A stretch of 64,000 nt of DNA. Origin: Escherichia coli (GTDB lineage Bacteria > Pseudomonadota > Gammaproteobacteria > Enterobacterales > Enterobacteriaceae). Where the stretch lies: NCBI RefSeq assembly GCF_001677475.2, contig NZ_CP015229.1; one strand, 5' to 3'. The position numbers were made by a program, and so were the translations under genes. Positions 4,313 through 43,830 of the stretch are shown in pieces. Each line of letters begins with the position of its first letter. Within the stretch, counting starts at the first letter, position 1. Under the pieces are notes generated by a model. It saw nothing but the letters and a program-made list of their open reading frames with translations, ran no database searches and was not told the DNA's origin.

Positions 4313-4363
4313 ATGACACGCGTTCAATTTAAACACCACCATCATCACCATCATCCTGACTAG
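4313..4363 (+). CDS. hisL: his operon leader peptide HisL (MTRVQFKHHHHHHHPD, 7 consecutive His codons)
   Basis: 16-codon ORF with His7 run read directly; too short for ORF track. Confidence 0.95.
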   Translation: MTRVQFKHHHHHHHPD

Positions 4364-4423
4364 TCTTTCAGGCGATGTGTGCTGGAAGACATTCAGATCT
4401 TCCAGTGGTGCATGAACGCATGA

Positions 4424-4460
4424 GAAAGCCCCCGGAAGATCATCTTCCGGGGGCTTTTTT
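4424..4460 (+). terminator. his attenuator terminator (gcccccggaag...cttccgggggc followed by T6)
   Basis: Perfect GC-rich hairpin plus T-run between hisL and hisG. Confidence 0.9.
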
Positions 4461-4508
4461 ATTGCGCGATTGATAACGGTTCAGACAGGTTTAAAGAGGA
4501 ATAACAAA

Positions 4509-12632: not shown

Positions 12633-12774
12633 TACCCTAACTGACGGAAATTTCCAAGTCCGCATAGTTTAGCGATAATCCTCGTGAATGCTATAGGATA
12701 AGTGATAAAAATAATGAATTGTTGCGTAAGTAACAAAAGACAATCAGGGCGTAAATAGCCCTGATAACAAGATG

Positions 12775-13950
<1,176 letters not shown>

Positions 13951-14131
13951 TCAGAATTAACTTAACTGTGAATCATGATGTTTTTAGCATCCTGATAAGA
14001 GTTAAAAGTTTTAACGCTACGTTGTAAGATGGTCAACGCAACGAAAAACAATTCAGATTTTCTTTATAAGAATAGCTGATATTTATTAAGTTAATATTAA
14101 GCAGTGAAATTTAGTCTATAAGATATTTGGC

Positions 14132-14163
14132 AAAAAAAAGCCCGGTGCAATATACGCCGGGCC
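14132..14163 (-). terminator. Rho-independent terminator downstream of gnd (gcccggtg...cgccgggc with A8 on plus strand = T8 on minus)
   Basis: Hairpin plus homopolymer run read directly. Confidence 0.6.
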
Positions 14164-14189
14164 TCAATTTTATTGTTGATTAAATCAGA

Positions 14190-15596
14190 TTAATCCAGCC
14201 ATTCAGTATGGAACACACCTTCTTTATCAATGCGCTTATAAGTATGCGCACCGAAATAGTCACGCTGTGCCTGGATCAGGTTTGCAGGCAGAACTGCGGC
14301 GCGGTAGCTGTCATAATAGGCAACCGCAGCCGCGAAGGTCGGAACCGGGATACCGTTCTGTACTGCATAAGCAACGACATCACGCAGCGCCTGCTGGTAG
14401 TCATCGGCAATTTGCTTAAAGTACGGAGCCAGCAGCAGGTTAGCGATCTGTGGATTTTCGGCATATGCATCGGTGATTTTCTGCAGGAACTGCGCACGGA
14501 TGATGCAGCCAGCACGGAAAATCTTCGCGATTTCGCCGTAGTTCAGATCCCAGTTGTATTCTTCAGACGCAGCACGCAGCTGAGAGAAGCCCTGAGCGTA
14601 AGAAACGATTTTGCCCAGATACAGCGCACGGCGAACTTTTTCGATGAACTCAGCCTTGTCGCCTGCTGACTGAGCTTGCGGACCAGAGAGAACTTTAGAT
14701 GCGGCAACGCGCTGATCTTTCAGAGAAGAGATATAACGTGCAAACACAGACTCGGTAATCAGCGACAGCGGTTCTCCGAGATCCAGCGCGCTCTGGCTGG
14801 TCCATTTACCGGTACCTTTGTTAGCCGCTTCATCCAGGATCACATCAACCAAGTAGTTACCGTCTTCATCTTTTTTAGTGAAGATGTCTTTGGTGATGTC
14901 GATCAGGTAGCTGCTCAGTTCACCGTTATTCCACTCGGTAAAGGTCTGTGCCAGTTCTTCGTTGGTGAGGTTCAGGCCACCTTTAAGCAGAGAATAGGCT
15001 TCAGCAATCAGTTGCATATCACCGTATTCAATACCGTTGTGAACCATCTTCACATAGTGACCTGCACCATCGGCACCAATATAGGTAACGCATGGCTCCC
15101 CGTCTTCAGCTACTGCGGCGATTTTGGTCAGGATCGGTGCAACCAGTTCATAGGCTTCTTTCTGCCCACCAGGCATAATGGAAGGACCTTTCAGCGCACC
15201 TTCTTCACCGCCGGAAACACCGGTACCAATGAAGTTAAAACCTTCGGCAGAAAGCTCACGATTACGACGAATGGTGTCCTGGAAGAAGGTATTACCACCA
15301 TCAATAATGATGTCACCTTTATCGAGGTATGGCTTGAGGGAATCAATAGCAGCATCCGTGCCTGCACCTGCTTTAACCATTAACAGGATGCGACGAGGCG
15401 TTTCCAGAGATTCAACGAACTCTTTCACCGTATAGTAAGGAACCAGTTTTTTGCCTGGATTTTCGGCAATCACTTCTTCCGTCTTTTCACGGGAACGGTT
15501 GAAAATAGAGACGGTATAACCACGGCTTTCGATGTTAAGCGCAAGATTGCGCCCCATCACTGCCATACCGACTACGCCAATCTGTTGCTTTGACAT
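14190..15596 (-). CDS. gnd: 6-phosphogluconate dehydrogenase (decarboxylating) Gnd
   Basis: [21 protein letters not shown]... 468 aa; synteny. Confidence 0.95.
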
Positions 15597-15787
15597 TGTT
15601 TACTCCTGTCAGGGGGTTACCGCGGGATTGCGCGGCTTGAATATGAAACAGATGTTAACTCAAGTTACATGAATGTGTGTAGTGCTGAATTTCATTAATG
15701 CAACGAATACCGTTCATCTTCCTTTATACAGACATCCACTTGTAACCAAACCTACGCGCACATGTAAGCGAAGATAAATCTATAACA

Positions 15788-17212
15788 TCAAGAAATTAAA
15801 GATATAATACTCCCAAGCACATTCGTAACATATTGCTTAGCCTGATTTTCATCACTGCCTTCAGCGTAACAACGGAGTTCAGGGGCATTTCCGGAAGGAC
15901 GGAGATGTATAATATCACCATTAGTTAAAATAAATCTTGCACCATCAGTTTCATCAATAGTGGAACAGGATAATGATTCATACCCTAATTTATTAAAGAA
16001 ATTATTAGGTGATGAAATGGCATTTTTTATAATTTGCTGACTTGACTCTGAAGGAAAGTTTTTCACTCTATCTGACCAAGTAAATCGCTGTGGAAGATTA
16101 TTAACCAGTTGAGAGATAGTACTATTGCGAGAAGCTATTAAGAGCATTAACGCTGGTAATACTGCATCTCGAGTAGGTAACGCATTTAATTCTTTGCCAT
16201 TAATTTGTAAATCGGAGGCAAGCAGAAAACCGCCATTAGCTTCAAAACCAGCGACTGAATCAAATTGTTTAGCAAGTTCTGAAAACGCTGCAATCACATA
16301 AGGAGAGCCAATTTTAGTCCGTTGTGTATTTGCAAATTTATTAGATTGTTCAATTGCTGTATTACAACTCACTGGAATAGCCAACGCCTTGATATTAAGT
16401 TCAATAGCCGTAAGTAATCCCAGAATATCGCCTCGTAGCCATTCACCATTTTCATCGGCAACTAAAGGGCGATCACCATCACCATCTGTTGAGAAAATTG
16501 CATCGAGATTGTATTTTTTAGACCACTCTCTTGCAAGTAGACGATCTTCTTCGCTAACTGCTTCCGTATCAATAGGAACGAACTCATCACTTCTACCGAG
16601 GGAGATGACCTCAGCACCCAATTGATTAAAAAGTGGAGCATATAAATCTCGTCCTGCACTAGAATGTTCATAGATCCCAATTCTCTTCCCCTTTAAAATA
16701 TCGGAATTAAAAAGAGAAACATAACGTTCTAGGTATGAATCCGCACCTTGAGTACTTGTTTCAAGATGAGGTAATACATCTACAGGAGAAAAAACATATT
16801 CACTATTTACTATTGCTAACTCATCCTCTTTTGTGATTTCACCATCTGGACGGTAAAATTTCAAACCATTACGGTCAAAAGGTATGTGACTACCGGTAAC
16901 CATTATGCAGGGGATGTTTTTCTGCATGGAATAATGAGCTAATGCAGGGGTCGGAATTACACCATGATATTCAACAGCGAACCCATGTTGTTTGATAGCG
17001 AACGCGCATGCCTGAGCAATTTCATAACTACTCGGGCGATTGTCAATGGCTAAAGCAACTTTATTAAAATTGTATTTGTCATCAATAACAGAAAGAAACG
17101 CATGACTGAAGGCTGCACAAACATCATGGGTAAAATCGATGACTAAACCACGAGCACCACTAGTGCCGAAAGCAATATTGCTATCGGTAATGATTTTGTT
17201 AGCATTTAACAT
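15788..17212 (-). CDS. O-antigen cluster phosphohexomutase (phosphomannomutase-like, divergent; TGSHIP and DGDGDR motifs)
   Basis: alpha-D-phosphohexomutase-like motifs in ORF translation; position downstream of manC; sequence clearly different from cps CpsG in this window. Confidence 0.65.
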   Translation of the reverse strand: MLNANKIITDSNIAFGTSGARGLVIDFTHDVCAAFSHAFLSVIDDKYNFNKVALAIDNRPSSYEIAQACAFAIKQHGFAVEYHGVIPTPALAHYSMQKNIPCIMVTGSHIPFDRNGLKFYRPDGEITKEDELAIVNSEYVFSPVDVLPHLETSTQGADSYLERYVSLFNSDILKGKRIGIYEHSSAGRDLYAPLFNQLGAEVISLGRSDEFVPIDTEAVSEEDRLLAREWSKKYNLDAIFSTDGDGDRPLVADENGEWLRGDILGLLTAIELNIKALAIPVSCNTAIEQSNKFANTQRTKIGSPYVIAAFSELAKQFDSVAGFEANGGFLLASDLQINGKELNALPTRDAVLPALMLLIASRNSTISQLVNNLPQRFTWSDRVKNFPSESSQQIIKNAISSPNNFFNKLGYESLSCSTIDETDGARFILTNGDIIHLRPSGNAPELRCYAEGSDENQAKQYVTNVLGSIISLIS

Positions 17213-17217
17213 GATGA

Positions 17218-17964
17218 TTACTTCTTAATAAATTGAGGAAGTTTGGATAGATTTTTATACGCTAAAGCTATTGGCCAGATAATACCATTCTGTTTCATAG
17301 CGCGAATATCTTCCATTGATTTATTGATCATGGAAGATGCTGAGCGATTGCTAATTCCACCAACACGCATTTTCACTAATACTTTTGGTAAGTAAGCTAT
17401 TGAAATACGCTGTTTTAAAATATAACGTAATAATGAGTCATAATCAGCAGATATTCGGTAATCTAATGAAAAACAACCAAACTCACTATAACAATCGCGT
17501 TTCATATAAAATGATGGGTGTGGCGGCATCCAACCTAGTTTCATCTTCAAACGGCTAAATGAGCCACTCTTCCATAATCTAATACGTTTAGTCGTATCAT
17601 TTTGGGCAACATACTCCAAATCACCATAAACAGCATCACACCCTGAACTTTCAAATGTTTTTACTATATCTGCAATAGCATCGTCATAAGCAAGTAAGTC
17701 ATCAGAGTGCAAAAATCCAATTATATCACCAGAAGCTGCTTGAATACCTTTATTCAGTGCATCATAAATACCATTGTCGGGTTCGCAAATGATTGTTGAA
17801 ACTCTTGTACATTTACTCTTGATTAGCTCTATTGTATTATCTTTCGATGCTCCATCTACAACTATATATTCAATATCTGAATGCGTTTGTTTTTCCAGAG
17901 AGAGTAATGTATCAAGAAGCGTTTTTTCACTATTATAAGTTGCTGTGATAATTGAAATCCGCAT
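17218..17964 (-). CDS. Glycosyltransferase family 2 (WcaE-like)
   Basis: N-terminal ISIITATYNSEKTL...VVDGASKDNT motif typical of GT2; O-antigen cluster context. Confidence 0.75.
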   Translation of the reverse strand: MRISIITATYNSEKTLLDTLLSLEKQTHSDIEYIVVDGASKDNTIELIKSKCTRVSTIICEPDNGIYDALNKGIQAASGDIIGFLHSDDLLAYDDAIADIVKTFESSGCDAVYGDLEYVAQNDTTKRIRLWKSGSFSRLKMKLGWMPPHPSFYMKRDCYSEFGCFSLDYRISADYDSLLRYILKQRISIAYLPKVLVKMRVGGISNRSASSMINKSMEDIRAMKQNGIIWPIALAYKNLSKLPQFIKK

Positions 17965-19370
17965 TAGTATCCAACTCCAGAAGAAGAAACTCTTATAACA
18001 TCATCCTCTTCCAAGTAGACTCCTGATCTAACCTCAATTATTTCAAGTGGGATCTTGCCAGGATTTTCAATGGCATGTGGAACACCAACAGGTATATATG
18101 TTGATTCATTTTCTGAAACAAGATAAGTTTTCTCCTCAAGATGAACTTTAGCTGTCCCCGAAACAACAATCCAATGTTCAGTACGATGGTAATGGATCTG
18201 CTTAGCGGTAATGTGACCCGGTAATACAATCACATGTTTAACCTGAAAGCGTTGCCCTTCAGCTATAGTGTCATGACTGCCCCAAGGACGAAAAATTTCC
18301 CGATGTTGTAAATATTCTGTTCGATTATTCTTTTTAAGCTGAGCTACGATGTTTTTAACTTGCTGAACTTTATCTTTATGAGCAACTAATACTGCATCTT
18401 TCGTTTCAACGACAACCAAATCCTTTACGCCCACGGCACCAATAAGTCTATGCTGCGAATAAAGATAACTATCTGTAGCATCCTCAACCAAAACATCACC
18501 ACGAATGGCATTGCCGCTTTGGTCTTTTGAACTTATTTCCCACAGCGCAGACCATGACCCAACATCACTCCATTGCGCATCCAATGGTACGACTACAGCT
18601 TCTGCTGTTTTTTCCATAACGGCATAGTCGATTGACTCTTCAGGGCAGCAAGAAAAAGAAGAATTATCCAAGCGGATAAAATCTAAATCTTGAGTCGAGG
18701 AAGCTAAGGATTGCTGACAACTCTCTAGAATATCTGGACGGAATTTTTTTAGTTCATCGATGAATACAGATGCTCTGAACATAAACATTCCACTATTCCA
18801 AAGATAACCGCCATCTGACAAATACCGCTGAGCTAATTCTAGCTCTGGCTTTTCAACAAAAGCTGCAACTTTATAACCTTGCCCACTAAGTGGATCACCT
18901 GACTTAATATAGCCATACCCTGTCTCTGGAGCTGTTGGAACAATGCCAAATGTGACCAACTTACCTTGCTGCGCAAACTCCTTCGCGGCCAAAACTGCTG
19001 TAATGAAACTATTCTCATCCTGAATTTCATGGTCAGCCGCAAGAACTAAAAGTATAGGATCCTCTCCACTTGCCGTTGCCTGAAGCGCTGCAAGGGCTAC
19101 AGCTGGTGCCGTATTGCGCCCAACAGGCTCAAGCAAAATCCCACTATGCTTTAAACCAACTTTACGTAATTGTTCAGCAACGATGAAACGATGTGATTCA
19201 TTACAAATGATCAAAGCAGGATTGTGTTCAACCTTTTCTAGCCGTCGCATAGTCTCTTGCAACATAGTTAAGCGGCTATTTAAAGACAGAAATTGTTTCG
19301 GATAAAGTGTACGTGAAAGAGGCCATAATCTGGTACCAGATCCACCGGCCATGACAACGGGAAGTAGCAT
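17964..19370 (-). CDS. manC: Mannose-1-phosphate guanylyltransferase / mannose-6-phosphate isomerase (ManC), O-antigen copy
   Basis: ORF translation closely parallels cps CpsB in this window ([19 protein letters not shown]... C-terminal cupin); AT-rich codon usage. Confidence 0.9.
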   Translation of the reverse strand: MLLPVVMAGGSGTRLWPLSRTLYPKQFLSLNSRLTMLQETMRRLEKVEHNPALIICNESHRFIVAEQLRKVGLKHSGILLEPVGRNTAPAVALAALQATASGEDPILLVLAADHEIQDENSFITAVLAAKEFAQQGKLVTFGIVPTAPETGYGYIKSGDPLSGQGYKVAAFVEKPELELAQRYLSDGGYLWNSGMFMFRASVFIDELKKFRPDILESCQQSLASSTQDLDFIRLDNSSFSCCPEESIDYAVMEKTAEAVVVPLDAQWSDVGSWSALWEISSKDQSGNAIRGDVLVEDATDSYLYSQHRLIGAVGVKDLVVVETKDAVLVAHKDKVQQVKNIVAQLKKNNRTEYLQHREIFRPWGSHDTIAEGQRFQVKHVIVLPGHITAKQIHYHRTEHWIVVSGTAKVHLEEKTYLVSENESTYIPVGVPHAIENPGKIPLEIIEVRSGVYLEEDDVIRVSSSGVGY

Positions 19371-19375
19371 ATCTA

Positions 19376-19837
19376 TTACCTTGATATAAAATAATTTTTG
19401 GTATATTGATGAACTGTAGTGCTATTAAGCAACGTTACTACATCAAACCACTTGTAGGAATTATGCTGAATCGTTGGTAGGCGAAGTTGCTGCGGATTAA
19501 TTTGAATTTCATATCCATGCACTACGTAGTGTGTAGAAAAATCTAGTTCAGAAAAATTGTCATTGTAAAAGTGTTCATACACACCAAGAAATATGGCCTC
19601 ACCAAGACTAGTTTGAACGCCTAACTCTTCATATGTGATCCTTTTAAAAGCATCCTCGAATGACTCGTCCTTAAAAATTCGCCCTCCAGGCACAAACCAA
19701 TAATTTTTTGCGGGGCGATTCAGGCGCTGCCCAAGCAGCGCCTCTCCTTTATCATTTCTAATTATGAGGTCAATCGAGATTAGAGGAGTATGCTTGACTA
19801 TTGTTTTAAATAACTCATATTCTAATCTCTTTTTCAT
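19376..19837 (-). CDS. gmm: GDP-mannose mannosyl hydrolase (NUDIX), O-antigen copy
   Basis: NUDIX-type protein parallel to cps Gmm/WcaH in this window (YWFVPGGR motif). Confidence 0.85.
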   Translation of the reverse strand: MKKRLEYELFKTIVKHTPLISIDLIIRNDKGEALLGQRLNRPAKNYWFVPGGRIFKDESFEDAFKRITYEELGVQTSLGEAIFLGVYEHFYNDNFSELDFSTHYVVHGYEIQINPQQLRLPTIQHNSYKWFDVVTLLNSTTVHQYTKNYFISR

Positions 19838-19839
19838 AA

Positions 19840-20805
19840 CTATCCCCGAAAAGAATCAATATTCTCAAGAAACCATTGATATGTTAATGATAGACCTTCA
19901 TGTAAATTATAGCGATGTAGCCAGCCCAAGTTTTTGAGTCGGGTAACGTCCATAAGCTTTCGCGGGGTGCCATCTGGTTTGGTCGCGTCAAAAACAATTT
20001 TTCCTTGATAACCCACTACAGAAGCCATTGTTTCAGCCATTTCACGTATAGAACAATCCACCCCCGTACCAACATTAATATGAGATAACATTGGTTGTGT
20101 ATTTTGTTGATAGATTGTGTCCTCTAACTCCATCACATGAACCGAGGCAGCAGCCATATCATCAACATATAAAAACTCACGCATCGGTGTTCCCGTGCCC
20201 CAGACAATAACTTCTTGTGCACCACTTTCTTTTGCCTCATGGAATCTACGCATAAGCGCCGGAATAACATGGGAGTTTTCAGGATGGAAGTTATCATTCG
20301 AACCATAAAGATTAGTCGGCATTACACTTCTATAATCGCGACCATATTGACGATTATAAGACTCACATAATTTTATGCCCGCAATCTTAGCAATTGCGTA
20401 TGGCTCATTAGTTGGCTCAAGTATGCCCGTCAAAAGTGCAGACTCTTTCATCGGCTGCTCTGCAAATTTTGGATAAATGCAGCTAGAGCCTAAAAAAAGT
20501 AATTTTTGAATTCCAACCTTGTGAGCTGAATGTATAATATTACTCTCAATCATGAGATTCTGATAAATGAATTCTGCTGGAAATGTATTATTGGCATAAA
20601 TACCACCTACTTTTGCCGCAGCAAGATAAACCTGATCAACCCTCTCTCTCTCAAAAAATGCCTCAACATCCTTCTGCACGGTCAGATCGAGTTCTTTGTG
20701 TGTTTTAACCACTAACTCGATATCATCACGCAGCGATAATTGTCGGCAAATAGCAGAGCCAACCATGCCCTGGTGCCCAGCAACATATACTCTTTTCTTT
20801 ATCAT
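19840..20805 (-). CDS. fcl: GDP-L-fucose synthase (GDP-4-keto-6-deoxymannose 3,5-epimerase/4-reductase), O-antigen copy
   Basis: 321 aa, colinear with cps Fcl in this window ([12 protein letters not shown]...). Confidence 0.9.
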
Positions 20806-20808
20806 GTA

Positions 20809-21942
20809 TTAACGCTCCAGAGAAACCGAAACATCATAACCATGGCTTTTAAGAAGTGCATGTTGTTTCGCTTTTAACAAATCGCTAGCAACCATTTCTG
20901 CACACATCTCTTCAACTGTAATCTCTGGTTCCCAGCCTAATAGATTTTTTGCTTTTGCAGGGTCACCTAAGAGTGTTTCAACTTCAGCAGGACGGAAATA
21001 ACGAGGATCAACCCGAACTATAACGTCTCCAACATTTACACCAATAGCACAATCGGAAACTTTATTAACTACTGTGGCTATCTCATCTACACCCTCACCA
21101 GTGAATTCAAGTTCAAGTCCGACTTCTTTAGCAGCCATACGGACAAATTCACGCACAGATATCTGTTTACCTGTGGCGATGACAAAATCCTCTGGATGAT
21201 CTTGCTGAAGCATCATCCATTGCATGCGAACATAATCTTTAGCGTGTCCCCAGTCACGCAACGAATCCAGATTACCCAAATATAAGCATTGTTCGATCCC
21301 CTGAGAAATATTAGCTATTGCACGAGTAATTTTACGAGTAACAAAAGTTTCTCCACGGCGTGGCGATTCATGGTTAAAAAGAATACCATTACAAGCATAT
21401 ATACCATAAGATTCACGGTAGTTAACTGTTATCCAGTAAGCATACATCTTAGCTACAGCATAAGGCGAACGCGGGTAGAATGGAGTTGTTTCACGCTGAG
21501 GAATCTCTTGCACTAAACCAAAAAGTTCTGAAGTAGATGCTTGATAGAAACGTGTTTTTTTCTCCAGCCCACAGATTCGTATTGCTTCTAATAAACGTAA
21601 TGTACCTATTGCATCTACATCTGCTGTATATTCTGGTGACTCGAATGATACTGCGACATGGGATTGTGCACCAAGGTTATAAATTTCATCCGGTTGAATT
21701 TCTTGGATTAAACGGATCAGATTCGATGTATCTGTTAAATCCCCATAGTGTAAAATAAAATTAGGCTCATCAACGAATCGTGATTGATATATATGATCAA
21801 TTCTATCAGTGTTAAATGACGATGCTCGGCGTTTTATACCATGTACTTCATAACCTTTTTCAATAAGAAATTCAGCAAGATATGAACCATCTTGTCCAGT
21901 TACGCCTGTGATAAATGCAACTTTTTTATTCATTTTAATCAT
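20809..21942 (-). CDS. gmd: GDP-mannose 4,6-dehydratase, O-antigen copy (start may be at MNKK, 21930)
   Basis: Colinear with cps Gmd in this window ([37 protein letters not shown]). Confidence 0.9.
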
Positions 21943-21951
21943 GTTATGTTC

Positions 21952-22983
21952 CTAAATATTCAACTCATTATAAACTTTAATCGTTTCATTAACACATTTT
22001 GACCATGAAAATTTTTGCGCCTGCAGTAAACCTCTTTCGATCATAACATTTCTTTTTAAATTAACTAATTCTAAAGCTTCTTTTAACGTAAACTCATTAA
22101 TATCATCAATATAAATAGGCGCATTCCCCCCTACTTCCGGCAACGAGGATGTGTTTGCACAAATAACTGGACATCCGGCCTGCATAGCTTCTAGGACAGG
22201 TATTCCAAACCCCTCATAACTGGAAGGGTAAACAAGTGCATATGCAGTATTATACTGTATATTTAAATCTTCATTACTCAAAAATGTAAAATGTTCATAT
22301 CTATTTTTTAAATATTTTTCAAGGAGTTCTCTTTCATATTTTTTAAGCGAGCCTCCGCCTACAATTGTAAGCTTTAAGCCATGTAATTTCCCTACAGCTT
22401 TGACTGCAAGAACGAAATTTTTATAACCTTCTCTGGCACCGACAAACAAAACTGAATTATTTACTCTCATATCAGATATGTTAGAAATATGTTTATATGA
22501 TGGGGATACACCATTATAAATCACTCTAATTTTATCTTCACTAATTGGACAGTACTTAAGTAAATCTCTAGCAGTGTTGTTTGAAATACAAATTACGATA
22601 TCACTATTCTTGATAGCATGATATTTTTGAAGAGAATGAATAAATTTTGACATTCCTCCCCTGTATTTTTCATAGGTAAAATCATGAACAGTTGTAACAT
22701 TTTTCACATTCAAATTAGGATTTTTATGAACTCGATAATAACTTGAGTGTAAAACCCTAGTTTTAATATCACTTACATTTCTATATCTTTCTAAAATTCT
22801 TGGCTCACGATATTGCAACTTTAAGTCACTTGTATCAAACTCAAATTCTTTATTTTTATACAATAGAATTTCAGCTTGGTAATTTGATTTCACCATTCCT
22901 TGGATCAACTCATTAAAGTATACACTTATTCCACCAAATGATTGGAGATTATAAATAATCCCATCGATAGTTACCATTATCAT
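21952..22983 (-). CDS. Glycosyltransferase family 1 (GT4-like)
   Basis: C-terminal EGFGIPVLEAMQAGCPVI motif typical of GT-B retaining glycosyltransferases. Confidence 0.75.
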   Translation of the reverse strand: MIMVTIDGIIYNLQSFGGISVYFNELIQGMVKSNYQAEILLYKNKEFEFDTSDLKLQYREPRILERYRNVSDIKTRVLHSSYYRVHKNPNLNVKNVTTVHDFTYEKYRGGMSKFIHSLQKYHAIKNSDIVICISNNTARDLLKYCPISEDKIRVIYNGVSPSYKHISNISDMRVNNSVLFVGAREGYKNFVLAVKAVGKLHGLKLTIVGGGSLKKYERELLEKYLKNRYEHFTFLSNEDLNIQYNTAYALVYPSSYEGFGIPVLEAMQAGCPVICANTSSLPEVGGNAPIYIDDINEFTLKEALELVNLKRNVMIERGLLQAQKFSWSKCVNETIKVYNELNI

Positions 22984-24236
22984 CGCCCTCGCAAGGTAAT
23001 ACGTTCGATTAGAACGAACAATATCAAAAAGAAGATCAGTAACAATACATATGCAGGCCCAGAAAAATAAGTTCCAAATGAAGGTGAAATGAGAATTATA
23101 GAAAGCAAAAAATAGGATGCAGAGTTCGTAATTACTTTTGCATTAAACATTTTAAGCTTAGCAAAAATATAGCCATAAAAGATATTCATAGGTGAAAGAA
23201 AAGTTAAAATGACCAGTCCAACATATCCATAATCAACAAAATTATCCATCCCTTTTGAAAAAGCAGGTGTATGCCCCGACTCTGCAGCTCCTGGATAATA
23301 GATTTCATTTACATGCAGAAATCCATATACAAAAGGTTTATCAGGAAACAAACCTCTCGGTATATAAGACCAAAACTGGCTGAAATAGACTGTGCCATTG
23401 AAAAATTTAACCACACCTTTATCAATATCTTGCAGCAAATAAATACTGTTTTGATACTGGTCAAAATAAGACAATACTACATCGACATTCATATTTCCAA
23501 TAGCTAAAAATAAATTATAGAGAATGGCACACGCTGCCAGAGGTGTAACTAAAATCAGGCCAAATTTTAGAAATCTAGATTTATTAAGACTTAACACTGC
23601 AAGATAAAAAATCGCAAATGAAAGAATAAAGGTTTTCGATCCAAGAAAAAAAACCAAGGTACAATAGAATATCGCGCATAAAAATAATTTTATTTCCGAG
23701 CGTAAAGCCAACGCTCTAGAAAAATAAGATACTGAAAGCATACTTAAAGAAAAGGCATACAAAAAACCATTACCTTCTCGATAGTTTTGATAACCATCCC
23801 TGGGATTCGTCAACCATCCAGAAATACCTATTTCTGACTTTGAAGAAAGAAGAACAAATAATGTAACAAACAGAACCAATGTAATATTTGATATTCTTTT
23901 TAATTTTGTATGCGAAATTAAGCAAGTTAAATAGCTCTCTCTATTTTTGAATATTATATTAAAAATAAAATAAAATAAAATTATAGATAAAACACCCACA
24001 AAAGAGTATATGTTATATATGAATAAAGCCTCATTATAATATTGATTTAACGCAAAGTCTGAACCATAGAAAAGAGGGGCCAGAATATTTTCCAATAGAA
24101 AAACCGGGAATAAAATAATGGCGCAAATGGTAAAGGGATTGATAATTGTAAGTCTTAGCGTTTTCGTCGCTAATAAAGAAAAAGAAAAATATAGTACTAC
24201 AGCGAGTGTAACATTTAAACAATATATTATTACCAC
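22980..24236 (-). CDS. wzy: O-antigen polymerase Wzy (candidate)
   Basis: 418-aa highly hydrophobic multi-TM protein with no catalytic motifs of other families, very AT-rich, located in O-antigen cluster. Confidence 0.6.
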   Translation of the reverse strand: MVIIYCLNVTLAVVLYFSFSLLATKTLRLTIINPFTICAIILFPVFLLENILAPLFYGSDFALNQYYNEALFIYNIYSFVGVLSIILFYFIFNIIFKNRESYLTCLISHTKLKRISNITLVLFVTLFVLLSSKSEIGISGWLTNPRDGYQNYREGNGFLYAFSLSMLSVSYFSRALALRSEIKLFLCAIFYCTLVFFLGSKTFILSFAIFYLAVLSLNKSRFLKFGLILVTPLAACAILYNLFLAIGNMNVDVVLSYFDQYQNSIYLLQDIDKGVVKFFNGTVYFSQFWSYIPRGLFPDKPFVYGFLHVNEIYYPGAAESGHTPAFSKGMDNFVDYGYVGLVILTFLSPMNIFYGYIFAKLKMFNAKVITNSASYFLLSIILISPSFGTYFSGPAYVLLLIFFLILFVLIERITLRGR

Positions 24237-24246
24237 ATCCTCTCCC

Positions 24247-25056
24247 CTATCTTAAACCGAATAATTTGCGCTTAATTGATTTTGTTTTTTGATATAATGT
24301 TTGAGGAACAATCATTTTAAATAAAACTTGCAATGTATTATAGACAGCAAATTTTATTTTGTATGATAAGGGCATATGAATATTATTTTTAGCTAGAATG
24401 TAAGCAATTTCTTTCTTGACTAATTTTTTATTAGACTCATTTGAACTTACACCCGAAGCATCCATTATGGATACAGGAAAATTCACATAATGCAACGTAG
24501 ATGGATCTATTGTTCTTATCATAAAATCACTATCAGCAGCAATTTTTAGTGTTGTATCAAAGCGATTAGCATTATCTTTAAAAAAGCTAGAATGCTGGAA
24601 AGTACCCTGATGAGGAGGAAGTGAAGGCCGACCACATTCCCACTTTTTCTGTATTTTTCCGTAAACTCCAACTATATTATCTTTATCACTAAAATATACA
24701 TCACCATATATAGTTGTTGCACTCATATTTTCGTGAATGGCATTTGCTATTTTTGAAAGAGTATTATTTTCATAGAATGTATCGCCAGCTCCCATAAAAA
24801 TAACCCAATCGCCATTTATGTGAGGAAGAGCTTTATTCCAAGCGTCGTATATTCCTTGATCAGATTCGCATAAAAAATAATCTATAATATCAATATATCT
24901 ATAAATATATTCTAGTGTTGATTTGTTAGAGTTGCCGTCTATAACAATCCATTGAATATTACAATAATTTTGATTTTTAATAGATTCTGCAGTCTTGCAG
25001 AAATCTTCCTCACAATTATACGTCGATGTTATTATAGTAATCTGTAAGCCATTCAT
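24247..25056 (-). CDS. Glycosyltransferase family 2
   Basis: ITIITSTYNCEEDF...VIDGNSNKST N-terminal GT2 signature. Confidence 0.75.
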   Translation of the reverse strand: MNGLQITIITSTYNCEEDFCKTAESIKNQNYCNIQWIVIDGNSNKSTLEYIYRYIDIIDYFLCESDQGIYDAWNKALPHINGDWVIFMGAGDTFYENNTLSKIANAIHENMSATTIYGDVYFSDKDNIVGVYGKIQKKWECGRPSLPPHQGTFQHSSFFKDNANRFDTTLKIAADSDFMIRTIDPSTLHYVNFPVSIMDASGVSSNESNKKLVKKEIAYILAKNNIHMPLSYKIKFAVYNTLQVLFKMIVPQTLYQKTKSIKRKLFGLR

Positions 25057-25062
25057 CTTAAC

Positions 25063-25773
25063 TCACTTATTTTTCATAGCAATATATTTTAATCTTAATT
25101 CTTTAATTAATGTCTTTACTTTACTATCAGTGGAATACTCAATATTAAACGTGCCAGAGACTCCTCTTATTTTGGGAATAGTTGTTCCAATAACTCCTTT
25201 TAATTTATTATTTTTAATTTGCTCAAAAAAAATGTGTTCTAAATAAACACCATCAAGGTCACGCACAGATTTATAAGAATTAGCAAAAAAGTCCCAATAT
25301 ATTTTTTTATTTACAACATAAAATCTTGTATCAATCATATTTTCATTCAGAAAAGGAACTGGTATAAAAAAAGCTTTACCATTGAATGCATTTATACATT
25401 GCTTATAATTATCGACGTATAGTTTTGATGTTATTTTTGCAAAACTTTCAGCATTAGACAAATAGCGGCTATTCATTAATGCATACTCAATTATTTCACC
25501 CTCTCCGTAACCTTTACCATAAGATTGAACACTTTCTATATCATTTTTGAAATGTATTATCTCGATCGAATCTTTATTAAGTATTTGTTTATCATTATGA
25601 ATATCTTTCGTCAAATCATAATCACTACCATCACATATTACTATAGAATCAGCATTCTTTGACAACTCTCTTATCGCTTTCAATGTATGTAATAATCTTG
25701 AATTTTCATCAGAAAGATTTGTAAGAGGAGCATTAGGTGAGATACAAGAAGTCACTAATACTGGGATTTTCAT
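25063..25773 (-). CDS. Hypothetical O-antigen cluster protein, ~236 aa (possible glycosyltransferase of unassigned family); start ATG overlaps wzx stop (ATGA)
   Basis: ORF with ATGA coupling to wzx; contains DGSDYD (DxD-like) motif; no family recognised by eye. Confidence 0.4.
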   Translation of the reverse strand: MKIPVLVTSCISPNAPLTNLSDENSRLLHTLKAIRELSKNADSIVICDGSDYDLTKDIHNDKQILNKDSIEIIHFKNDIESVQSYGKGYGEGEIIEYALMNSRYLSNAESFAKITSKLYVDNYKQCINAFNGKAFFIPVPFLNENMIDTRFYVVNKKIYWDFFANSYKSVRDLDGVYLEHIFFEQIKNNKLKGVIGTTIPKIRGVSGTFNIEYSTDSKVKTLIKELRLKYIAMKNK

Positions 25774-27014
25774 TTTTTCTTTTCCAGCCTCAACGAAATT
25801 AACATTAGTATAAAATAATCGACGGTGACTCTTGCGCTCCAAGCATAAGCCACACCTGCTACAGAAAAATACATAATTGAAAAATATAAAACCAGCAGAT
25901 ATGGAATACATTCAACAAGATGAATGAGCCCCGTAATATTTGCATAACCTTTCGATTGGATTTGAGCAAATGGAACTTGAGCAAGAGAGTTGAATACAAA
26001 ACCTACTAATAATATTTGAAATATATAAGGACTCTCAGTGCTATATTGTTTTCCAAGCCATAAAGTTATAATATCACCAGCCTTCAAAGAAAACATAATA
26101 GCTATAACTATACTAGTTACACTTATTAATAACGTAGCCTCTTTTATTATTTTTCTCCGCTCATCTTTTGTATTATTCTTGCATAGAGCAGGAAAAACTG
26201 TCCTTGCTATAGTTGTCGGTAATATAAGTAACTTTGAAATTGCATCTGCAGGAGCAATATATAACGAAGCTTTAGCGGGGCCAACTGCATTTGATAAGAT
26301 AAATCGATCAATATTTGTAAGCAATGGGTTAATTATACTACTAATACTCGCCCATCCTCCAAAACTTAATAGTGCTTTTGTTTTACTTAGACTAAAATCC
26401 ATTGTAAGCCTATTATTTCTAAAAACAAAGAACACGCTTAAAAGAGCACCAACTATTCTCGCAATCACCAATCCCAAAGTAGCATTAAGCAAACCAACAT
26501 TTCCATGAATGAAAATAACTGGTAGTAGCGCAGTTAACACACCTGTAATTGTTTTTTGTACATTCAATAATTTGAACTTTTCATATCCTTCTAATATCCC
26601 CCAACAAACCATATTAAGAAGATAAAATGGCAGACAGTAGGATAAAATACTTATAGCATATGCAACACTTTCAGTTTGTTCCGGACCACTAATTAAGGAT
26701 GCAATCTTATGGTCGCAGTAATAAAAAATTACGGCTACAACAACACCAATAGATAATGTTAATAAAAATGATGTTGTAATTATTTGACTGGTTGCCTTTT
26801 TGTCGTTTTTATTTAATGATATTTCACGCACAACGGCTCGGGAAAGTCCGAGATCAAATATACTTGCGTATCCAACTATTGTAAAAAACATTAAAAAAAA
26901 GCCAAAGTTAGTTATTCCTAACTCCCTTGCCAAATACCCCATCGCAGGTATTGACAATAAAGTTGGGATTGCATACCCAACCAAATTTATTAAACTATTT
27001 ATTTTAATACTCAT
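25770..27014 (-). CDS. wzx: O-antigen flippase Wzx (polysaccharide transporter family)
   Basis: 414-aa protein with ~12 predicted TM segments, located immediately after rmlC. Confidence 0.7.
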   Translation of the reverse strand: MSIKINSLINLVGYAIPTLLSIPAMGYLARELGITNFGFFLMFFTIVGYASIFDLGLSRAVVREISLNKNDKKATSQIITTSFLLTLSIGVVVAVIFYYCDHKIASLISGPEQTESVAYAISILSYCLPFYLLNMVCWGILEGYEKFKLLNVQKTITGVLTALLPVIFIHGNVGLLNATLGLVIARIVGALLSVFFVFRNNRLTMDFSLSKTKALLSFGGWASISSIINPLLTNIDRFILSNAVGPAKASLYIAPADAISKLLILPTTIARTVFPALCKNNTKDERRKIIKEATLLISVTSIVIAIMFSLKAGDIITLWLGKQYSTESPYIFQILLVGFVFNSLAQVPFAQIQSKGYANITGLIHLVECIPYLLVLYFSIMYFSVAGVAYAWSARVTVDYFILMLISLRLEKKK

Positions 27015-27031
27015 TTTTTAATTATCTTTTG

Positions 27032-27574
27032 TCAATAATTATTTTGTATAAATGGAGTGCCCAAACAATCTTTTTGTGATAAAAGAGGTTCTTTGTATAA
27101 TTGCCAATCTATGTTAAGTAAAGCATCATTCCAAATGATACATTTCTCATGTTCTTTTGAGTAAAAATTATTGGTCTTATACAATATTTCTGAACCTTCT
27201 TCTTTTACATAAAAACCATGTGCAAATCCCTCAGGGATCCACAACTGGCGCTTATTCTCAGCAGATAAATTCACCCCAACCCACTTGCCAAAAGTAGGTG
27301 ACGATTTACGAATATCAACCGCAACATCAAAAACCTCACCAACAACGCAACGTACCAATTTCCCTTGCGCATAAGGTTCTAACTGATAATGCAGCCCGCG
27401 TAAAACACCTTTACTAGACTTCGAATGGTTATCCTGGACAAATTCAACCTTACGTCCTACAGCTTCTTCGAATACTTTCTGATTAAAGCTTTCCATAAAG
27501 AAACCACGCTCATCACCAAAAACTTTCGGCTCGAAAATTAACACATCAGGAATTTCTGTTTTAATTACGTTCAT
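27032..27574 (-). CDS. rmlC: dTDP-4-dehydrorhamnose 3,5-epimerase RmlC
   Basis: 180-aa cupin; rmlBDAC order. Confidence 0.9.
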   Translation of the reverse strand: MNVIKTEIPDVLIFEPKVFGDERGFFMESFNQKVFEEAVGRKVEFVQDNHSKSSKGVLRGLHYQLEPYAQGKLVRCVVGEVFDVAVDIRKSSPTFGKWVGVNLSAENKRQLWIPEGFAHGFYVKEEGSEILYKTNNFYSKEHEKCIIWNDALLNIDWQLYKEPLLSQKDCLGTPFIQNNY

Positions 27575-27578
27575 TTTA

Positions 27579-28457
27579 TTAATAACCTTTAATCATTTTC
27601 AGCAGATACTGTCCATAAGCATTTTTTTTCAGCGGCTCCGCTAATGCTTTCACCTGTTCAGCATCAATAAACCCTTTACGGTAAGCAATTTCTTCTGGGC
27701 AGGAAACCTTTAGTCCCTGGCGCTCTTCAATGGTGGCAATGAAGTTGCTTGCTTCAATAAGACTCTGATGTGTCCCCGTATCCAGCCATGCATAACCACG
27801 CCCCATCATGGCAACGGATAAACGCCCCTGTTCCATATAAATACGGTTAATATCGGTAATTTCCAGTTCACCACGGGCAGAAGGCTTAAGGTTTTTCGCC
27901 ATTTCGACAACGTCGTTATCATAGAAATAAAGCCCGGTTACCGCATAATTACTTTTTGGTTGTAGCGGTTTTTCTTCCAGGCAGATCGCCGTACCGTTTT
28001 TATCAAACTCAACGACACCGTAGCGTTCAGGATCATTAACGTGATAGGCAAATACCGTTGCACCACTTTCTTTGTTAACAGCGACATCCATTAACTTCGG
28101 CAGATCATGACCGTAGAAGATATTATCACCAAGAACCAAAGCACAATCATCACCACCGATAAACTCTTCACCGATAATAAACGCCTGCGCAAGCCCATCT
28201 GGAGTCGGTTGCACTTTGTACTGAAGATTTAGCCCCCACTGGCTACCGTCACCCAGCAGTTGTTGAAAACGAGGAGTATCCTGTGGCGTACTAATAATCA
28301 GAATATCGCGAATACCCGCCAACATCAGTGTAGAGAGCGGGTAATAGATCATCGGCTTATCATAAATAGGTAATAGCTGTTTACTGACAGCCATAGTCAC
28401 AGGATAAAGACGTGTACCAGAACCACCCGCTAAAATAATACCTTTACGCGTTTTCAT
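27579..28457 (-). CDS. rmlA: Glucose-1-phosphate thymidylyltransferase RmlA
   Basis: [19 protein letters not shown] nucleotidyltransferase N-terminus; 292 aa. Confidence 0.95.
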
Positions 28458-28514
28458 TTCATCATTCCTTTTAATTCATCTTGCTCCACCATCACGAACA
28501 AGATGCAAAAACTA

Positions 28515-29414
28515 TTAAATTGCTGTAGTCGTAAATAATTCGTTGAGCATTCGTTTCACACCAACCTGCCACTCAGGCAAGACAAGCGCAAAGTTCTGCT
28601 GAAATTTTTCTGTATTAAGGCGAGAGTTATGTGGACGACGAGCTGGTGTAGGATAGGCTGTTGTTGGTACTGCGTTGAGCTTGTTGAGTGCAAGGGGAAT
28701 ACCTGCTTTGCGCGCCTCTTCAAAAACCAGCGCAGCATAATCGTGCCAGGTTGTGGTACCACTGGCTACCAGATGGTACAAACCTGCGACTTCCGGTTTA
28801 TTCAGTGCCACACGAATAACATGTGCCGTACAATCAGCCAGCAGCTCAGCACCTGTTGGCGCACCAAATTGATCATTTATCACAGCCAGTTCTTCGCGCT
28901 CTTTTGCCAGACGCAACATCGTTTTGGCGAAGTTATTTCCTTTACCTGCGTATACCCAGCTGGTACGGAAAATAAGATGCTTCGCGCAATGTTCCTGTAA
29001 CGCTTTTTCTCCGGCTAACTTGGTTTCACCGTAAACATTTAGCGGTGCGGTTGCATCCGTCTCCAGCCATGGCGTGTCGCCATTTCCAGGGAAGACGTAG
29101 TCAGTTGAGTAATGAATTACCCAAGCCCCAACTTCATTAGCCGCTTTTGCAATTGATTCAACGCTAGTCGCATTGAGTAATTGTGCAAATTCGGGTTCTG
29201 ACTCAGCCTTATCTACTGCGGTGTGAGCCGCAGCATTAACAATAACATCAGGTCGAATTCTTTTGACTGTTTCAGCTACACCTTCAGGATTACTAAAATC
29301 ACCACAATAATCAGTGGAGTGAACATCAAGAGCAATCAAATTACCCAAAGGTGCCAGAGCACGCTGTAGTTCCCAACCTACCTGCCCTGTTTTGCCGAAA
29401 AGGAGGATATTCAT
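28515..29414 (-). CDS. rmlD: dTDP-4-dehydrorhamnose reductase RmlD
   Basis: [20 protein letters not shown]; 299 aa. Confidence 0.95.
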   Translation of the reverse strand: MNILLFGKTGQVGWELQRALAPLGNLIALDVHSTDYCGDFSNPEGVAETVKRIRPDVIVNAAAHTAVDKAESEPEFAQLLNATSVESIAKAANEVGAWVIHYSTDYVFPGNGDTPWLETDATAPLNVYGETKLAGEKALQEHCAKHLIFRTSWVYAGKGNNFAKTMLRLAKEREELAVINDQFGAPTGAELLADCTAHVIRVALNKPEVAGLYHLVASGTTTWHDYAALVFEEARKAGIPLALNKLNAVPTTAYPTPARRPHNSRLNTEKFQQNFALVLPEWQVGVKRMLNELFTTTAI

Positions 29415-30499
29415 TACTGGCGGCCCTCATAGTTCTGTGCAATCCACGATTGATAGGCACCACTTTTCACATTATCAACCCATTTTGTATTGGACAGGTA
29501 CCATTCCACTGTCTTCCGAATCCCGCTCTCAAACGTTTCCTGCGGTTTCCAGCCCAATTCGCGGCTAATCTTCTCAGCATCAATCGCATAACGGCGATCG
29601 TGTCCCGGGCGGTCGGCAACATAAGTAATTTGCTCACGATAAGATTTCTCTTTCGGTACAATCTCATCCAGCAAATCACAAATAGTAAGCACTACATCGA
29701 TGTTTTTCTTTTCGTTGTGTCCGCCAATATTATAGGTTTCGCCTGCTTTACCTTCAGTAACGACTGTATATAACGCTCGAGCATGATCCTCGACATACAA
29801 CCAATCGCGAATTTGATCCCCTTTACCATAAATAGGTAATGCTTTACCTTCCAGAGCATTCAGAATAACCAATGGAATCAATTTTTCCGGGAAATGATAA
29901 GGGCCATAATTGTTAGAGCAATTAGTCACAATGGTCGGTAAACCATAGGTACGTTTCCACGCGCGGACTAAATGATCGCTGGATGCTTTGGATGCGGAAT
30001 AAGGGCTGCTTGGTGCGTAAGCTGTTGTCTCAGTAAATAAGGGTAATTTTTCTTTATTATTTACTTCGTCAGGATGAGGCAAATCACCATAGACTTCGTC
30101 AGTAGAAATATGATGAAAACGGAAGCTATTTTTCTTGTCGCTATCAAGAGCAGACCAGTAATTGCGAGCGGCTTCCAAAAGGACATAAGTACCAACAATA
30201 TTGGTTTCAATAAATGCCGCAGGGCCTGTAATTGAACGATCCACATGGCTTTCAGCAGCCAGGTGCATCACTGCATCCGGCTGATGCAGAGCAAAAATCC
30301 GCGCCATTGCAGCAGCATCGCAAATATCCGCATGTTCAAAAACATAGCGTTCAGAATCAGAAACATCAGCAAGTGATTCCAGGTTTCCGGCGTACGTTAA
30401 TTTATCGACATTAACAACACTATCCTGCGTATTATTTATAATGTGACGAACTACAGCAGAACCAATAAATCCTGCGCCACCAGTAACAAGTATTTTCAC
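29414..30499 (-). CDS. rmlB: dTDP-glucose 4,6-dehydratase RmlB
   Basis: [20 protein letters not shown]; 361 aa SDR. Confidence 0.95.
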
Positions 30500-30573
30500 T
30501 TAATTATTCCATATTACTTCAGAGCATGCTGTGAAATAAGCGGCTCTTAGTTTGATTAATAGAGGTATTAATG

Positions 30574-30612
30574 CACGCTACCGCCCCTGGCTTTACAGCT
30601 ACCAGAGCACTG
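30574..30612 (-). promoter_or_regulatory. JUMPstart element containing ops (GGCGGTAGCGTG) upstream of the O-antigen operon
   Basis: Minus-strand read: cagtgctctggtagctgtaaagccaggggcggtagcgtg, matching the remembered 39-bp JUMPstart consensus. Confidence 0.9.
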
Positions 30613-30870
30613 CATGCATGCCTACGATGTGACGAGCGTTACCCACTCGCGCTAAACCCGAAAAATTCAAACACTAATTGTCTTACCAATCCGCTCTGGA
30701 AACAAGGAAAATCCTGGAAAACTTTGACTAAAATCCTATTGCTAACTCGTTGTTATCCTGATTGTTTATATAAAACAACGGCAGGAATATTCGCAACAAA
30801 TTACTTTCGCCACGAATCTTCACTGCCGTTATAATTTTCTTATCAACCGTTACATTCGGTCAGATTTTCA

Positions 30871-31764
30871 TTATTCGCTTAACAGCTTCTCAATGCCTTT
30901 ACGGAACTTCGCCCCTTCTTTCAGGTTGCGTAGTCCATACTTCACGAACGCTTGCATATAACCCATTTTTTTACCGCAGTCGTAGCTGTCACCAGTCATC
31001 AGCATTGCATCAACAGACTGTTTTTTCGCCAGTTCGGCAATGGCATCTGTCAGTTGGATACGTCCCCATGCACCTGGCTGAGTGCGTTCAAGTTCCGGCC
31101 AAATATCGGCAGAAAGCACATAGCGACCAACGGCCATGATGTCTGAGTCCAGCGTCTGCGGCTGATCCGGTTTTTCGATGAATTCAACAATGCGGCTGAC
31201 TTTACCTTCGCGATCCAGTGGTTCTTTGGTCTGAATAACGGAGTATTCAGAGAGGTCACCCGGCATACGTTTTGCCAGCACCTGGCTGCGGCCCGTTTCG
31301 TTGAAGCGCGCAATCATGGCAGCAAGGTTGTAGCGCAGCGGGTCGGCGCTGGCGTCATCGATCACAACGTCTGGCAGCACCACGACAAATGGGTTGTCAC
31401 CAATGGCGGGTCGTGCACACAAAATGGAGTGGCCCAAACCTAAAGGTTCGCCCTGACGCACGTTCATAATGGTCACGCCCGGTGGACAGATGGACTGCAC
31501 TTCCGCAAGCAGTTGACGCTTCACGCGCTGCTCAAGGAGAGATTCTAATTCATAAGAGGTGTCGAAGTGGTTTTCGACCGCGTTCTTGGACGCGTGAGTT
31601 ACCAGGAGGATTTCTTTGATCCCTGCAGCAACAATCTCGTCAACAATGTACTGAATCATTGGCTTGTCGACGATCGGTAGCATCTCTTTGGGAATCGCCT
31701 TAGTGGCAGGCAACATATGCATCCCAAGACCCGCTACAGGAATAACTGCTTTTAAATTCGTCAT
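30871..31764 (-). CDS. galF: UTP-glucose-1-phosphate uridylyltransferase-like regulatory subunit GalF (start at [14 protein letters not shown])
   Basis: ORF translation; conserved position between cps and O-antigen clusters. Confidence 0.95.
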
Positions 31765-40497: not shown

Positions 40498-40587
40498 GTC
40501 GTTACCCTTTTTCAGGCAATAGTTGGCCCTGACCGAAGCGGCCAATTTTGTTTTTGTCGTTATTTACATCGCGGTTCGGCATTCATT

Positions 40588-43828: not shown

Positions 43829-43830
43829 CA

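Follow-up and report, generated by a model that had tools for sequence, protein, structure and literature searches.

The two gene sets for GDP-L-fucose synthesis found in a 64,000-nucleotide stretch of an Escherichia coli genome (the window) are very probably two old modules that were inherited separately, one being the resident copy of the colanic acid cluster and the other part of a horizontally circulating O-antigen cassette. The genes gmd, fcl, gmm and manC are present twice, all on the minus strand, at 21942-17964 in the O-antigen cluster and at 45920-40690 in the colanic acid cluster, in a region that comprises his-wzz-ugd-gnd, the O-antigen genes, galF and the colanic acid genes. The positions and common orientation given in a preliminary description of this DNA are exact. 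The gene order, which it called colinear, is the same in both copies, but the colanic copy is interrupted: wcaI, a fucosyltransferase gene that the O-antigen copy lacks, separates gmm from manC. The O-antigen unit extends past manC to 15788, adding a GT2 glycosyltransferase gene and manB, which brings it to six genes.

In the O-antigen unit (minus strand throughout), gmd, encoding GDP-mannose 4,6-dehydratase, lies at 20809-21942 and scores 582 bits with TIGR01472 (cutoff 415), with a GC3 of 0.24. Its longest open reading frame has 377 amino acids, and the real start is likely to be at 21933, 9 nt later, which is the start in RefSeq homologues. It is followed by fcl (GDP-L-fucose synthase, a GDP-4-keto-6-deoxymannose 3,5-epimerase/4-reductase, 19840-20805; NF047922, 546 bits, cutoff 500), gmm (the Nudix enzyme GDP-mannose mannosyl hydrolase, 19376-19837; NF011963, 203 bits, cutoff 146) and manC (mannose-1-P guanylyltransferase/PMI, 17964-19370; TIGR01479, 745 bits, cutoff 373), the latter not reaching the threshold of NF012004, the model specific for CpsB (674 vs 859). 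The manC stop and the start of the GT2 gene share a TAATG overlap. The GT2 gene (17218-17964; Pfam PF00535) is wfeY-like by its position between manC and manB (phosphomannomutase, 15788-17212; four PGM_PMM Pfam domains).

The colanic acid cluster, also on the minus strand, has the order wza-wzb-wzc-wcaABCDEF-gmd-fcl-gmm-wcaI-cpsB-cpsG-wcaJ-wzxC-wcaKLM upstream of galF and is 97.5-97.9% identical to annotated E. coli sequences. Its gmd (44799-45920; TIGR01472, 587 bits) lies in a region that shares 97.5% identity with colanic clusters of E. coli in which gmd is annotated. Annotation in E. coli matches likewise covers fcl (wcaG, 43831-44796; NF047922, 549 bits), the GT4 gene wcaI (42129-43352; Pfam GT4/GT1) and cpsG (manB, 39127-40497; Pfam PGM_PMM I-IV), while gmm (wcaH, 43349-43831) reaches 325 bits with NF011963 and cpsB (manC, 40690-42126) 1113 bits with NF012004 (cutoff 859). 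An algC RNA motif was seen at 40502-40551, just before cpsG.

The separate inheritance of the modules is visible in neighbour-joining trees with bootstrap, which were made for single genes and for a concatenation of the four proteins. In the concatenation, an O-type and a colanic-type clade are each obtained with 100% bootstrap; the O-antigen copy groups with cassettes of Citrobacter, Enterobacter and Aeromonas (100%), and modules of colanic type from Mangrovibacter and Enterobacter sp. Ag1 group with the colanic copy (100%). Across the four proteins the copies in the window share 66.5% identity, and each is at least as close to homologues from Pseudomonas or Marinobacterium. For ManC of the O-antigen copy, relatives were found in a large protein collection at 96% (an ENA protein), 93-94% (E. 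albertii, E. coli), 86-87% (Citrobacter), 82% (Enterobacter) and 70% (Aeromonas) identity, compared with only 59% for the colanic copy, and a search for a donor using one genome per species gave a best ManC match of 62% (Stutzerimonas, Pseudomonas), too low to point to a donor. The separate multi-genus clades and the low identity between the copies support the earlier suggestion that the O-antigen copy did not arise by local duplication. Its arrival with the O36 cluster, which was part of the same suggestion, goes beyond what can be shown, since the cassette is common to several serogroups.

The alternative that retains most weight, although it is improbable, is an ancient duplication in an enterobacterial ancestor, after which the GC content of one copy fell in situ by drift, with no horizontal transfer involved. 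Enterobacteriaceae hold both modules, and the O-type and colanic-type sequences come together in 73% of the fcl bootstraps, but sisterhood of the two lineages obtains 0% for manC and 8% for gmd, and colanic ManC is 69-70% identical to ManC of Aliidiomarina, Photorhabdus and Alishewanella as against 59% to the O-type copy. Copies from Aeromonas and from plasmids fall inside the O-type clade, only 130 of 5426 E. coli genomes contain 80% or more of the cassette's length (227 of the 5426 any part of it), and its manB is not orthologous to cpsG, all of which argue against descent within the family. Since fcl alone places the lineages as sisters, a duplication long ago somewhere in the Gammaproteobacteria may lie behind them; what is excluded is a local or recent one.

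Horizontal circulation of the O-antigen copy is also suggested by the distribution of the cassette gmd-fcl-gmm-manC-GT2-manB as a whole. It is 99.1-99.7% identical at the nucleotide level to RefSeq genomes with O36-family wzx/wzy and about 88% identical to a block in E. coli O84 and another serogroup, always adjoining gnd. The same six-gene block is present in Citrobacter portucalensis, Enterobacter hormaechei and Aeromonas hydrophila, and is carried by IncFIA/FIC/R and other plasmids. In other genera the GT2 protein accompanies the cassette at 61-82% amino acid identity, and wfeY was reported between manC and manB in O36, O41, O156, O159 and O168 (PMC10606467). Its predicted function is that of an alpha-1,3-fucosyltransferase acting on GlcNAc-PP-Und, the acceptor and linkage following from the literature on wfeY (PMC10606467). 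Paralogy to glycosyltransferases of the colanic cluster was considered and rejected: the GT2 protein and WcaE both have 248 amino acids, but their match is limited to the N-terminal 101 residues with 41% identity and the score is far under the cutoff of the WcaE model, and the GT4 protein encoded upstream of the O-antigen gmd has no significant similarity to WcaI. The O-antigen ManB shares 21.6% identity with CpsG (E=2e-8), a homology at superfamily level only, and its best solved relative is the phosphomannomutase 4hjh (E=1.5e-109). It is a four-domain alpha-D-phosphohexomutase of a phosphomannomutase lineage other than CpsG, and not a CpsG ortholog; the two are predicted functional duplicates although they are distant homologues. 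A scan for internal promoters and terminators in the cassette gave no more matches than in shuffled sequence.

A more far-reaching interpretation, which we consider doubtful, is that the six-gene block, often with the upstream GT4 gene, is a self-contained cassette for fucosylating the first sugar that moves between genera, and that selection favours its strong divergence from the colanic module, direct repeats of similar sequence being liable to cause loss of the O-antigen cluster, as in O14. The genera involved would be Escherichia, Citrobacter, Enterobacter, Proteus and Aeromonas, and movement may partly proceed via IS26-flanked segments of IncF/IncR resistance plasmids. The occurrence across genera and on plasmids is observed; that the block moves as one unit and that its divergence is selected is conjecture.

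Both gene sets qualify, from their Gmd and Fcl sequences, as modules for GDP-L-fucose, which is the predicted product. In both copies Gmd, Fcl and ManC score above the cutoffs of NCBIfam equivalog models and Gmm above that of a subfamily model. The catalytic Thr, Glu, Tyr and Lys of Gmd, an SDR enzyme, are kept in both, T133/E135/Y157/K161 aligning with T137/E139/Y161/K165 of the O-antigen protein, and O-antigen Gmm keeps the residues that match R37, R52, R65, E70, Y103, Q123 and H124. Several of the GDP-sugar pathways behind E. coli O antigens use Gmd (PMC7685785), and one could imagine that the O-antigen fcl makes another GDP-6-deoxyhexose (D-rhamnose, 6-deoxy-D-talose or a product of the colitose pathway), so that the modules would not be functional duplicates. 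This is very unlikely, as the protein passes the Fcl equivalog model, all five catalytic and epimerase residues of the E. coli GDP-fucose synthase (S107/C109/Y136/K140/H179) are identical in both copies according to the alignment, and alpha-L-Fuc-(1->3)-GlcNAc was reported in O36 (PMC10606467).

The age of the separation is indicated by the divergence between the copies. Protein identities (BLASTP) are 78.9% for gmd, 73.2% for fcl and 58.7% for manC (E=0 for each) and 49-50% for gmm (E=5e-58), and codon alignments give nucleotide identities of 67.7, 64.0, 58.0 and 50.0%, respectively. Synonymous sites are saturated and NG86 dS is not computable, so that there is no meaningful dN/dS ratio; third-position identity is 0.28-0.36, against 0.22-0.23 expected from composition alone. 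The O-antigen genes have a GC content of 0.37-0.42 and a GC3 of 0.24-0.34, compared with 0.54-0.56 and 0.62-0.67 for the colanic genes. The preliminary description, in which an AT-rich and a GC-rich copy were called homologous but visibly diverged, is borne out by these values, and the high nucleotide identity that would have spoken for recent duplication was looked for and not found. Megablast returned no match between the modules, the best 150-nt sliding window has an identity of at most 0.79, the longest exact word common to both (shared k-mers) has 14 nt, and neither a tract above 90% nucleotide identity between the modules nor gene-conversion tracts (sliding windows; blastn with word sizes 28, 11 and 7; shared k-mers) were detected in the window. 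A recent copying of the colanic module into the O-antigen locus by tandem or segmental duplication, or gene conversion continuing to the present, for which the like order and orientation of gmd-fcl-gmm-manC and the conversion documented for O157 manB/cpsG (PMC3158064) could be cited, retains practically no probability in view of this divergence, the saturated synonymous sites, the separate multi-genus clades and the different lineage of manB. The split between the copies is much older than this genome, and recent duplication or gene conversion between them is excluded.

RecA needs a perfect match of about 23-27 bp plus high overall identity. With 50-68% nucleotide identity and a longest exact run of 14 nt, the modules would fall short of this and are probably now too different to recombine. 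The sequence basis of the earlier claim that divergence limits homologous recombination is therefore present, and the barrier itself would follow from it.

The O-antigen cluster belongs, as judged by wzx/wzy type and galF-gnd gene content, to the O36 family, the serotype being read from genes. Eight RefSeq genomes in which wzx/wzy carry an O36-family annotation fully cover positions 15700-31000, with 95.9-98.4% identity. O-antigen clusters are modular and have low GC (PMC3715488). The cassette has a GC content of 0.39, compared with 0.28-0.33 in the O36-specific centre; since it also is common to other serogroups, the O36 cluster looks like a modular construction, and the cassette may predate O36 in the E. 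coli O-locus pool. The Fuc-(1->3)-GlcNAc linkage with alpha-L-Fuc is described for O36, the sugar composition of which rests on one sentence (PMC10606467).

Each cluster has its own JUMPstart/ops element on the minus strand, which is consistent with separate expression. One is located upstream of rmlB at the head of the O-antigen operon (30574-30612; Rfam RF01707, 60 bits vs a gathering score of 35; GGCGGTAG at 30578-30585) and the other upstream of wza at the head of the colanic acid operon (55029-55066; RF01707, 57.9 bits; GGCGGTAG at 55033-55040). As ops occurs in both operons, any difference in expression must sit in the promoters. Expression of wza is Rcs-dependent, and the colanic acid operon is induced by stress. 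The colanic module gmd-fcl-gmm-wcaI-cpsB-cpsG is the resident, host-like copy (GC3 about 0.63) and would supply fucose to colanic acid. In the cassette, ManB and ManC would provide GDP-mannose, Gmd and Fcl would convert this to GDP-L-fucose, and the embedded GT2 would add the second O-unit sugar, alpha-L-Fuc, to GlcNAc-PP-undecaprenol. Because the modules are in separate operons with their own JUMPstart/ops elements, the O antigen could be fucosylated whether or not the colanic acid operon is active, and we infer that independent regulation is the reason that both have been kept.

Even where the pathway is already encoded nearby on the chromosome, an O-antigen cluster brings nucleotide-sugar genes of its own. 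The present case illustrates this rule, as well as the nature of O-antigen clusters as mosaics of low-GC modules, and has little weight beyond annotation. A two-module arrangement is ordinary and already described, the O36 cluster, wfeY and manB/cpsG recombination all having been published, and about 780 extra gmd-like places in the 4843 E. coli genomes with any gmd match indicate that a second gmd copy is common in this species. In practical terms, deletion or conversion via manB/cpsG as in O14 and O157 is probably not open to the two modules of this strain.

When the window is compared with known systems, the colanic acid cluster is identical in order and content to the wca/cps cluster of K-12 (Stevenson et al. 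1996, via PMC7685785), with 97.5% nucleotide identity to E. coli genomes, likewise a JUMPstart element upstream of wza, and no notable difference. The O-antigen cluster has the same order, rmlBDAC-wzx-...-wzy-GT4-gmd-fcl-gmm-manC-GT2-manB next to gnd, as the E. coli O36 cluster (Perepelov et al. 2014, Carbohydr Res 390:46, via PMC7685785; wfeY cassette of O36, O41, O156, O159, O168 and SD2019180, PMC10606467). In a comparison with one O36 strain, identity is 97-99.8% in the serogroup-specific centre but only 85-91% in rmlC-rmlB and 82-92% in ugd-gnd, and wzy is intact in the window but frameshifted in that strain; for the flanks of the window, no match among the 5426 complete E. coli genomes exceeds about 98% identity. 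O157 and O14 have, like the window, GDP-sugar genes in two sets of like direction, which flank the O-antigen cluster and are separated by about 23 kb. In the O14 type strain, the O-antigen cluster was lost via manB/cpsG recombination (PMC7685785), and in O157 manB was converted by cpsG (>95% identity; PMC3158064). The manB copies in these serogroups are similar enough to recombine, whereas manB in the window is of a different lineage with 22% amino acid identity to cpsG, and the other four genes of its two modules have no common word longer than 14 nt.

The window is laid out like the his / O-antigen / colanic acid region of E. coli K-12. The his operon is on the (+) strand (His leader at 4339-4462), whereas the (-) strand holds wzzB, ugd, gnd, the O-antigen cluster at 15788-30499, galF and, at 31939-54850, the colanic acid genes wcaM to wza. 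Eight RefSeq E. coli genomes match the whole length of the O-antigen cluster at 95.9-98.4% identity, and their wzx and wzy genes are annotated as 'O36 family'. The his and colanic acid flanks are E. coli-like, but none of 5426 complete E. coli genomes exceeds about 98% identity to any part of them. It follows that the source belongs to a divergent lineage or has recombined heavily here. A match to the REP-derived Rfam family naRNA4 lies between wcaK and wzxC (35961-36031, (+)), and such repeats probably explain the 10-29 matches per E. coli genome obtained with colanic-region queries.

The O-antigen copy consists of gmd (20809-21942), fcl (19840-20805), gmm (19376-19837) and manC (17964-19370), and the colanic copy of gmd (44799-45920), fcl (43831-44796), gmm (43349-43831) and cpsB/manC (40690-42126), all on the (-) strand. 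These coordinates agree exactly with the preliminary description, which had gmd-fcl-gmm-manC present twice, but the colanic copy is split by wcaI (42129-43352, (-)) between gmm and manC, and the O-antigen unit runs on through a GT2 gene (248 aa; 17218-17964, (-)) and manB (15788-17212, (-)). Gmd, Fcl, Gmm and ManC pass their NCBIfam models in both gene sets, which also conserve the catalytic residues established for the E. coli enzymes. The observation of two modules is real and its interpretation essentially right; the arrangement is ordinary and already published.

Regarding the origin of the modules, neighbour-joining trees (Kimura correction, 200 bootstraps) were made for 18 modules. On concatenation, an O-type clade (three E. 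coli serogroups, Citrobacter, Enterobacter, Aeromonas) and a colanic-type clade (the window copy, Mangrovibacter, Enterobacter sp. Ag1) each received 100% support. Bootstrap support for the two types as sisters was 73% with fcl, 44% with gmm, 8% with gmd and 0% with manC, and the 66.5% identity of the window copies over the four proteins is in the same range as that of either copy with Pseudomonas, Marinobacterium and Aliidiomarina homologues (63-72%). These results exclude a duplication that was local or recent, whereas a very old one somewhere in Gammaproteobacteria may have occurred.

The copies are homologous yet diverged in nucleotide sequence, as had been proposed. Protein identities are 78.9% (gmd), 73.2% (fcl), 50.0% (gmm) and 58.7% (manC), with E-values from 0 to 5e-58, whereas codon-aligned nucleotide identities are 67.7, 64.0, 50.0 and 58.0%, respectively. 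Megablast did not align the two modules with each other, 14 nt is the longest exact word that they have in common, and no 150-nt window exceeds an identity of 0.79. Third-position identity is 0.28-0.36 versus 0.22-0.23 expected from base composition alone, and Nei-Gojobori dS could not be computed, synonymous sites being saturated. The described contrast between an AT-rich O-antigen and a GC-rich colanic copy is borne out by GC3 (0.24-0.34 versus 0.62-0.67), that of the colanic copy resembling the his genes and the remainder of its cluster. Taken together, the low identity, saturated dS, short common words and GC3 split exclude recent duplication and gene conversion between the modules. RecA-dependent exchange has minimal homology requirements, by which divergence at this level would be expected to block such exchange.

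The six genes gmd-fcl-gmm-manC-GT2-manB form a single block, or cassette, adjoining gnd, with manC and GT2 overlapping by one base (TAATG). In nucleotide sequence, the cassette is 99.1-99.7% identical in O36 genomes and about 88% identical in O84 and at least one more serogroup, of which wzx/wzy and the glycosyltransferases differ from those of O36. At least 80% of its length is found in 130 of the 5426 complete E. coli genomes, and the gene order and TAATG overlap recur in chromosomes of Citrobacter portucalensis, Enterobacter hormaechei and Aeromonas hydrophila. Plasmid-borne cassettes occur in E. coli, C. portucalensis, Proteus terrae and E. hormaechei (plasmid matches H77-H81). One, on the IncFIA/FIC/R plasmid pdm277c_NDM5 (NZ_CP096176.1, locus L088, 11932-23277), has GT4 and flippase genes upstream, short fragmentary polysaccharide genes, and IS26 beside it. 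The plasmid cassettes of E. coli, Citrobacter, Proteus and Enterobacter (IncF/IncR and others) show 69-88% amino acid identity, with IS26 adjacent. In another O36 genome, NZ_CM143910.1, the IS5-like ISKpn26 interrupts the cassette. Identity of ManC relatives falls from 96% (an unnamed ENA protein) through 93-94% (E. albertii, E. coli), 86-87% (Citrobacter), 82% (Enterobacter) and about 70% (Aeromonas) to 66-69% (Photobacterium, Yersinia), all of them closer to the O-antigen ManC than the colanic copy is (59%). With colanic gmd as a distant blastn query, 5624 places were found in 4843 E. coli genomes, about 780 of them extra gmd-like copies, so that second copies are common.

Within the O-antigen cluster, three blocks differ in GC content, which is 0.36-0.47 in the rml genes, 0.28-0.33 in the serogroup-specific centre and 0.34-0.42 in the cassette. 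Other serogroups share the rml genes and the cassette but not the centre. As compared to another O36 E. coli (locus L001), centre and cassette are 97-99.8% identical, whereas rmlC-rmlB (27258-29757) and ugd-gnd (12761-15260) reach only 85-91% and 82-92%, drops that mark recombination breakpoints at both cluster ends. The GC blocks and this uneven identity show that the cluster has been pieced together from modules, each with its own history, in the way described for clusters of Salmonella and E. coli (PMC3715488). Of the proposal that the O-antigen copy arrived with its cluster rather than by local duplication, the latter part stands, given the separate clades, and the former needs qualification since the cassette may be older than the O36 combination of modules. 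The window wzy (22980-24236, (-)) is an intact 418-aa ORF, with two extra A residues (23646 and 23718) relative to wzy of O36 strain NZ_OW848980.1 (L001, 10281-11535), which is annotated as frameshifted.

In the most likely pathway, ManB and ManC would yield GDP-mannose, from which Gmd and Fcl would make GDP-L-fucose. The GT2 gene, lying between manC and manB, is the counterpart of wfeY, assigned to the alpha-L-Fuc-(1->3)-D-GlcNAc linkage common to O36, O41, O156, O159 and O168 (PMC10606467). JUMPstart/ops elements lie upstream of rmlB for the O-antigen operon (30574-30612, (-)) and of wza for the colanic operon (55029-55066, (-)), and promoter and terminator matches inside the cassette were not in excess. 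The colanic acid operon is Rcs-induced. With a GDP-fucose supply of its own, the O-antigen operon would allow the O unit to be made independently of the colanic one, and we infer that this independence is the reason for keeping that supply.

The cassette manB encodes a four-domain phosphohexomutase, with phosphomannomutase 4hjh as nearest solved relative (E=1.5e-109). An Rfam algC RNA motif (40502-40551, (-); 77 bits versus a gathering score of 33.8) sits in the 190-nt cpsB/cpsG gap, closely preceding the colanic phosphomannomutase gene. The O-antigen manB, starting 5 nt past the GT2 gene, is without this element. The identity of this manB to cpsG is only 21.6%, which is important since through this pair both clusters are known to interact in other strains: in the O14 type strain such an interaction led to deletion of the O-antigen cluster (PMC7685785), and the O157 manB, unlike that of the window, was converted to >95% identity with cpsG (PMC3158064). 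Marinobacterium and Pseudomonas loci (L004, L011, L017, L035) carry gmd-fcl-wcaI-like-gmm-manC modules, in which the WcaI homologue (59-61% amino acid identity) is placed between fcl and gmm, whereas in colanic acid clusters wcaI lies between gmm and manC.
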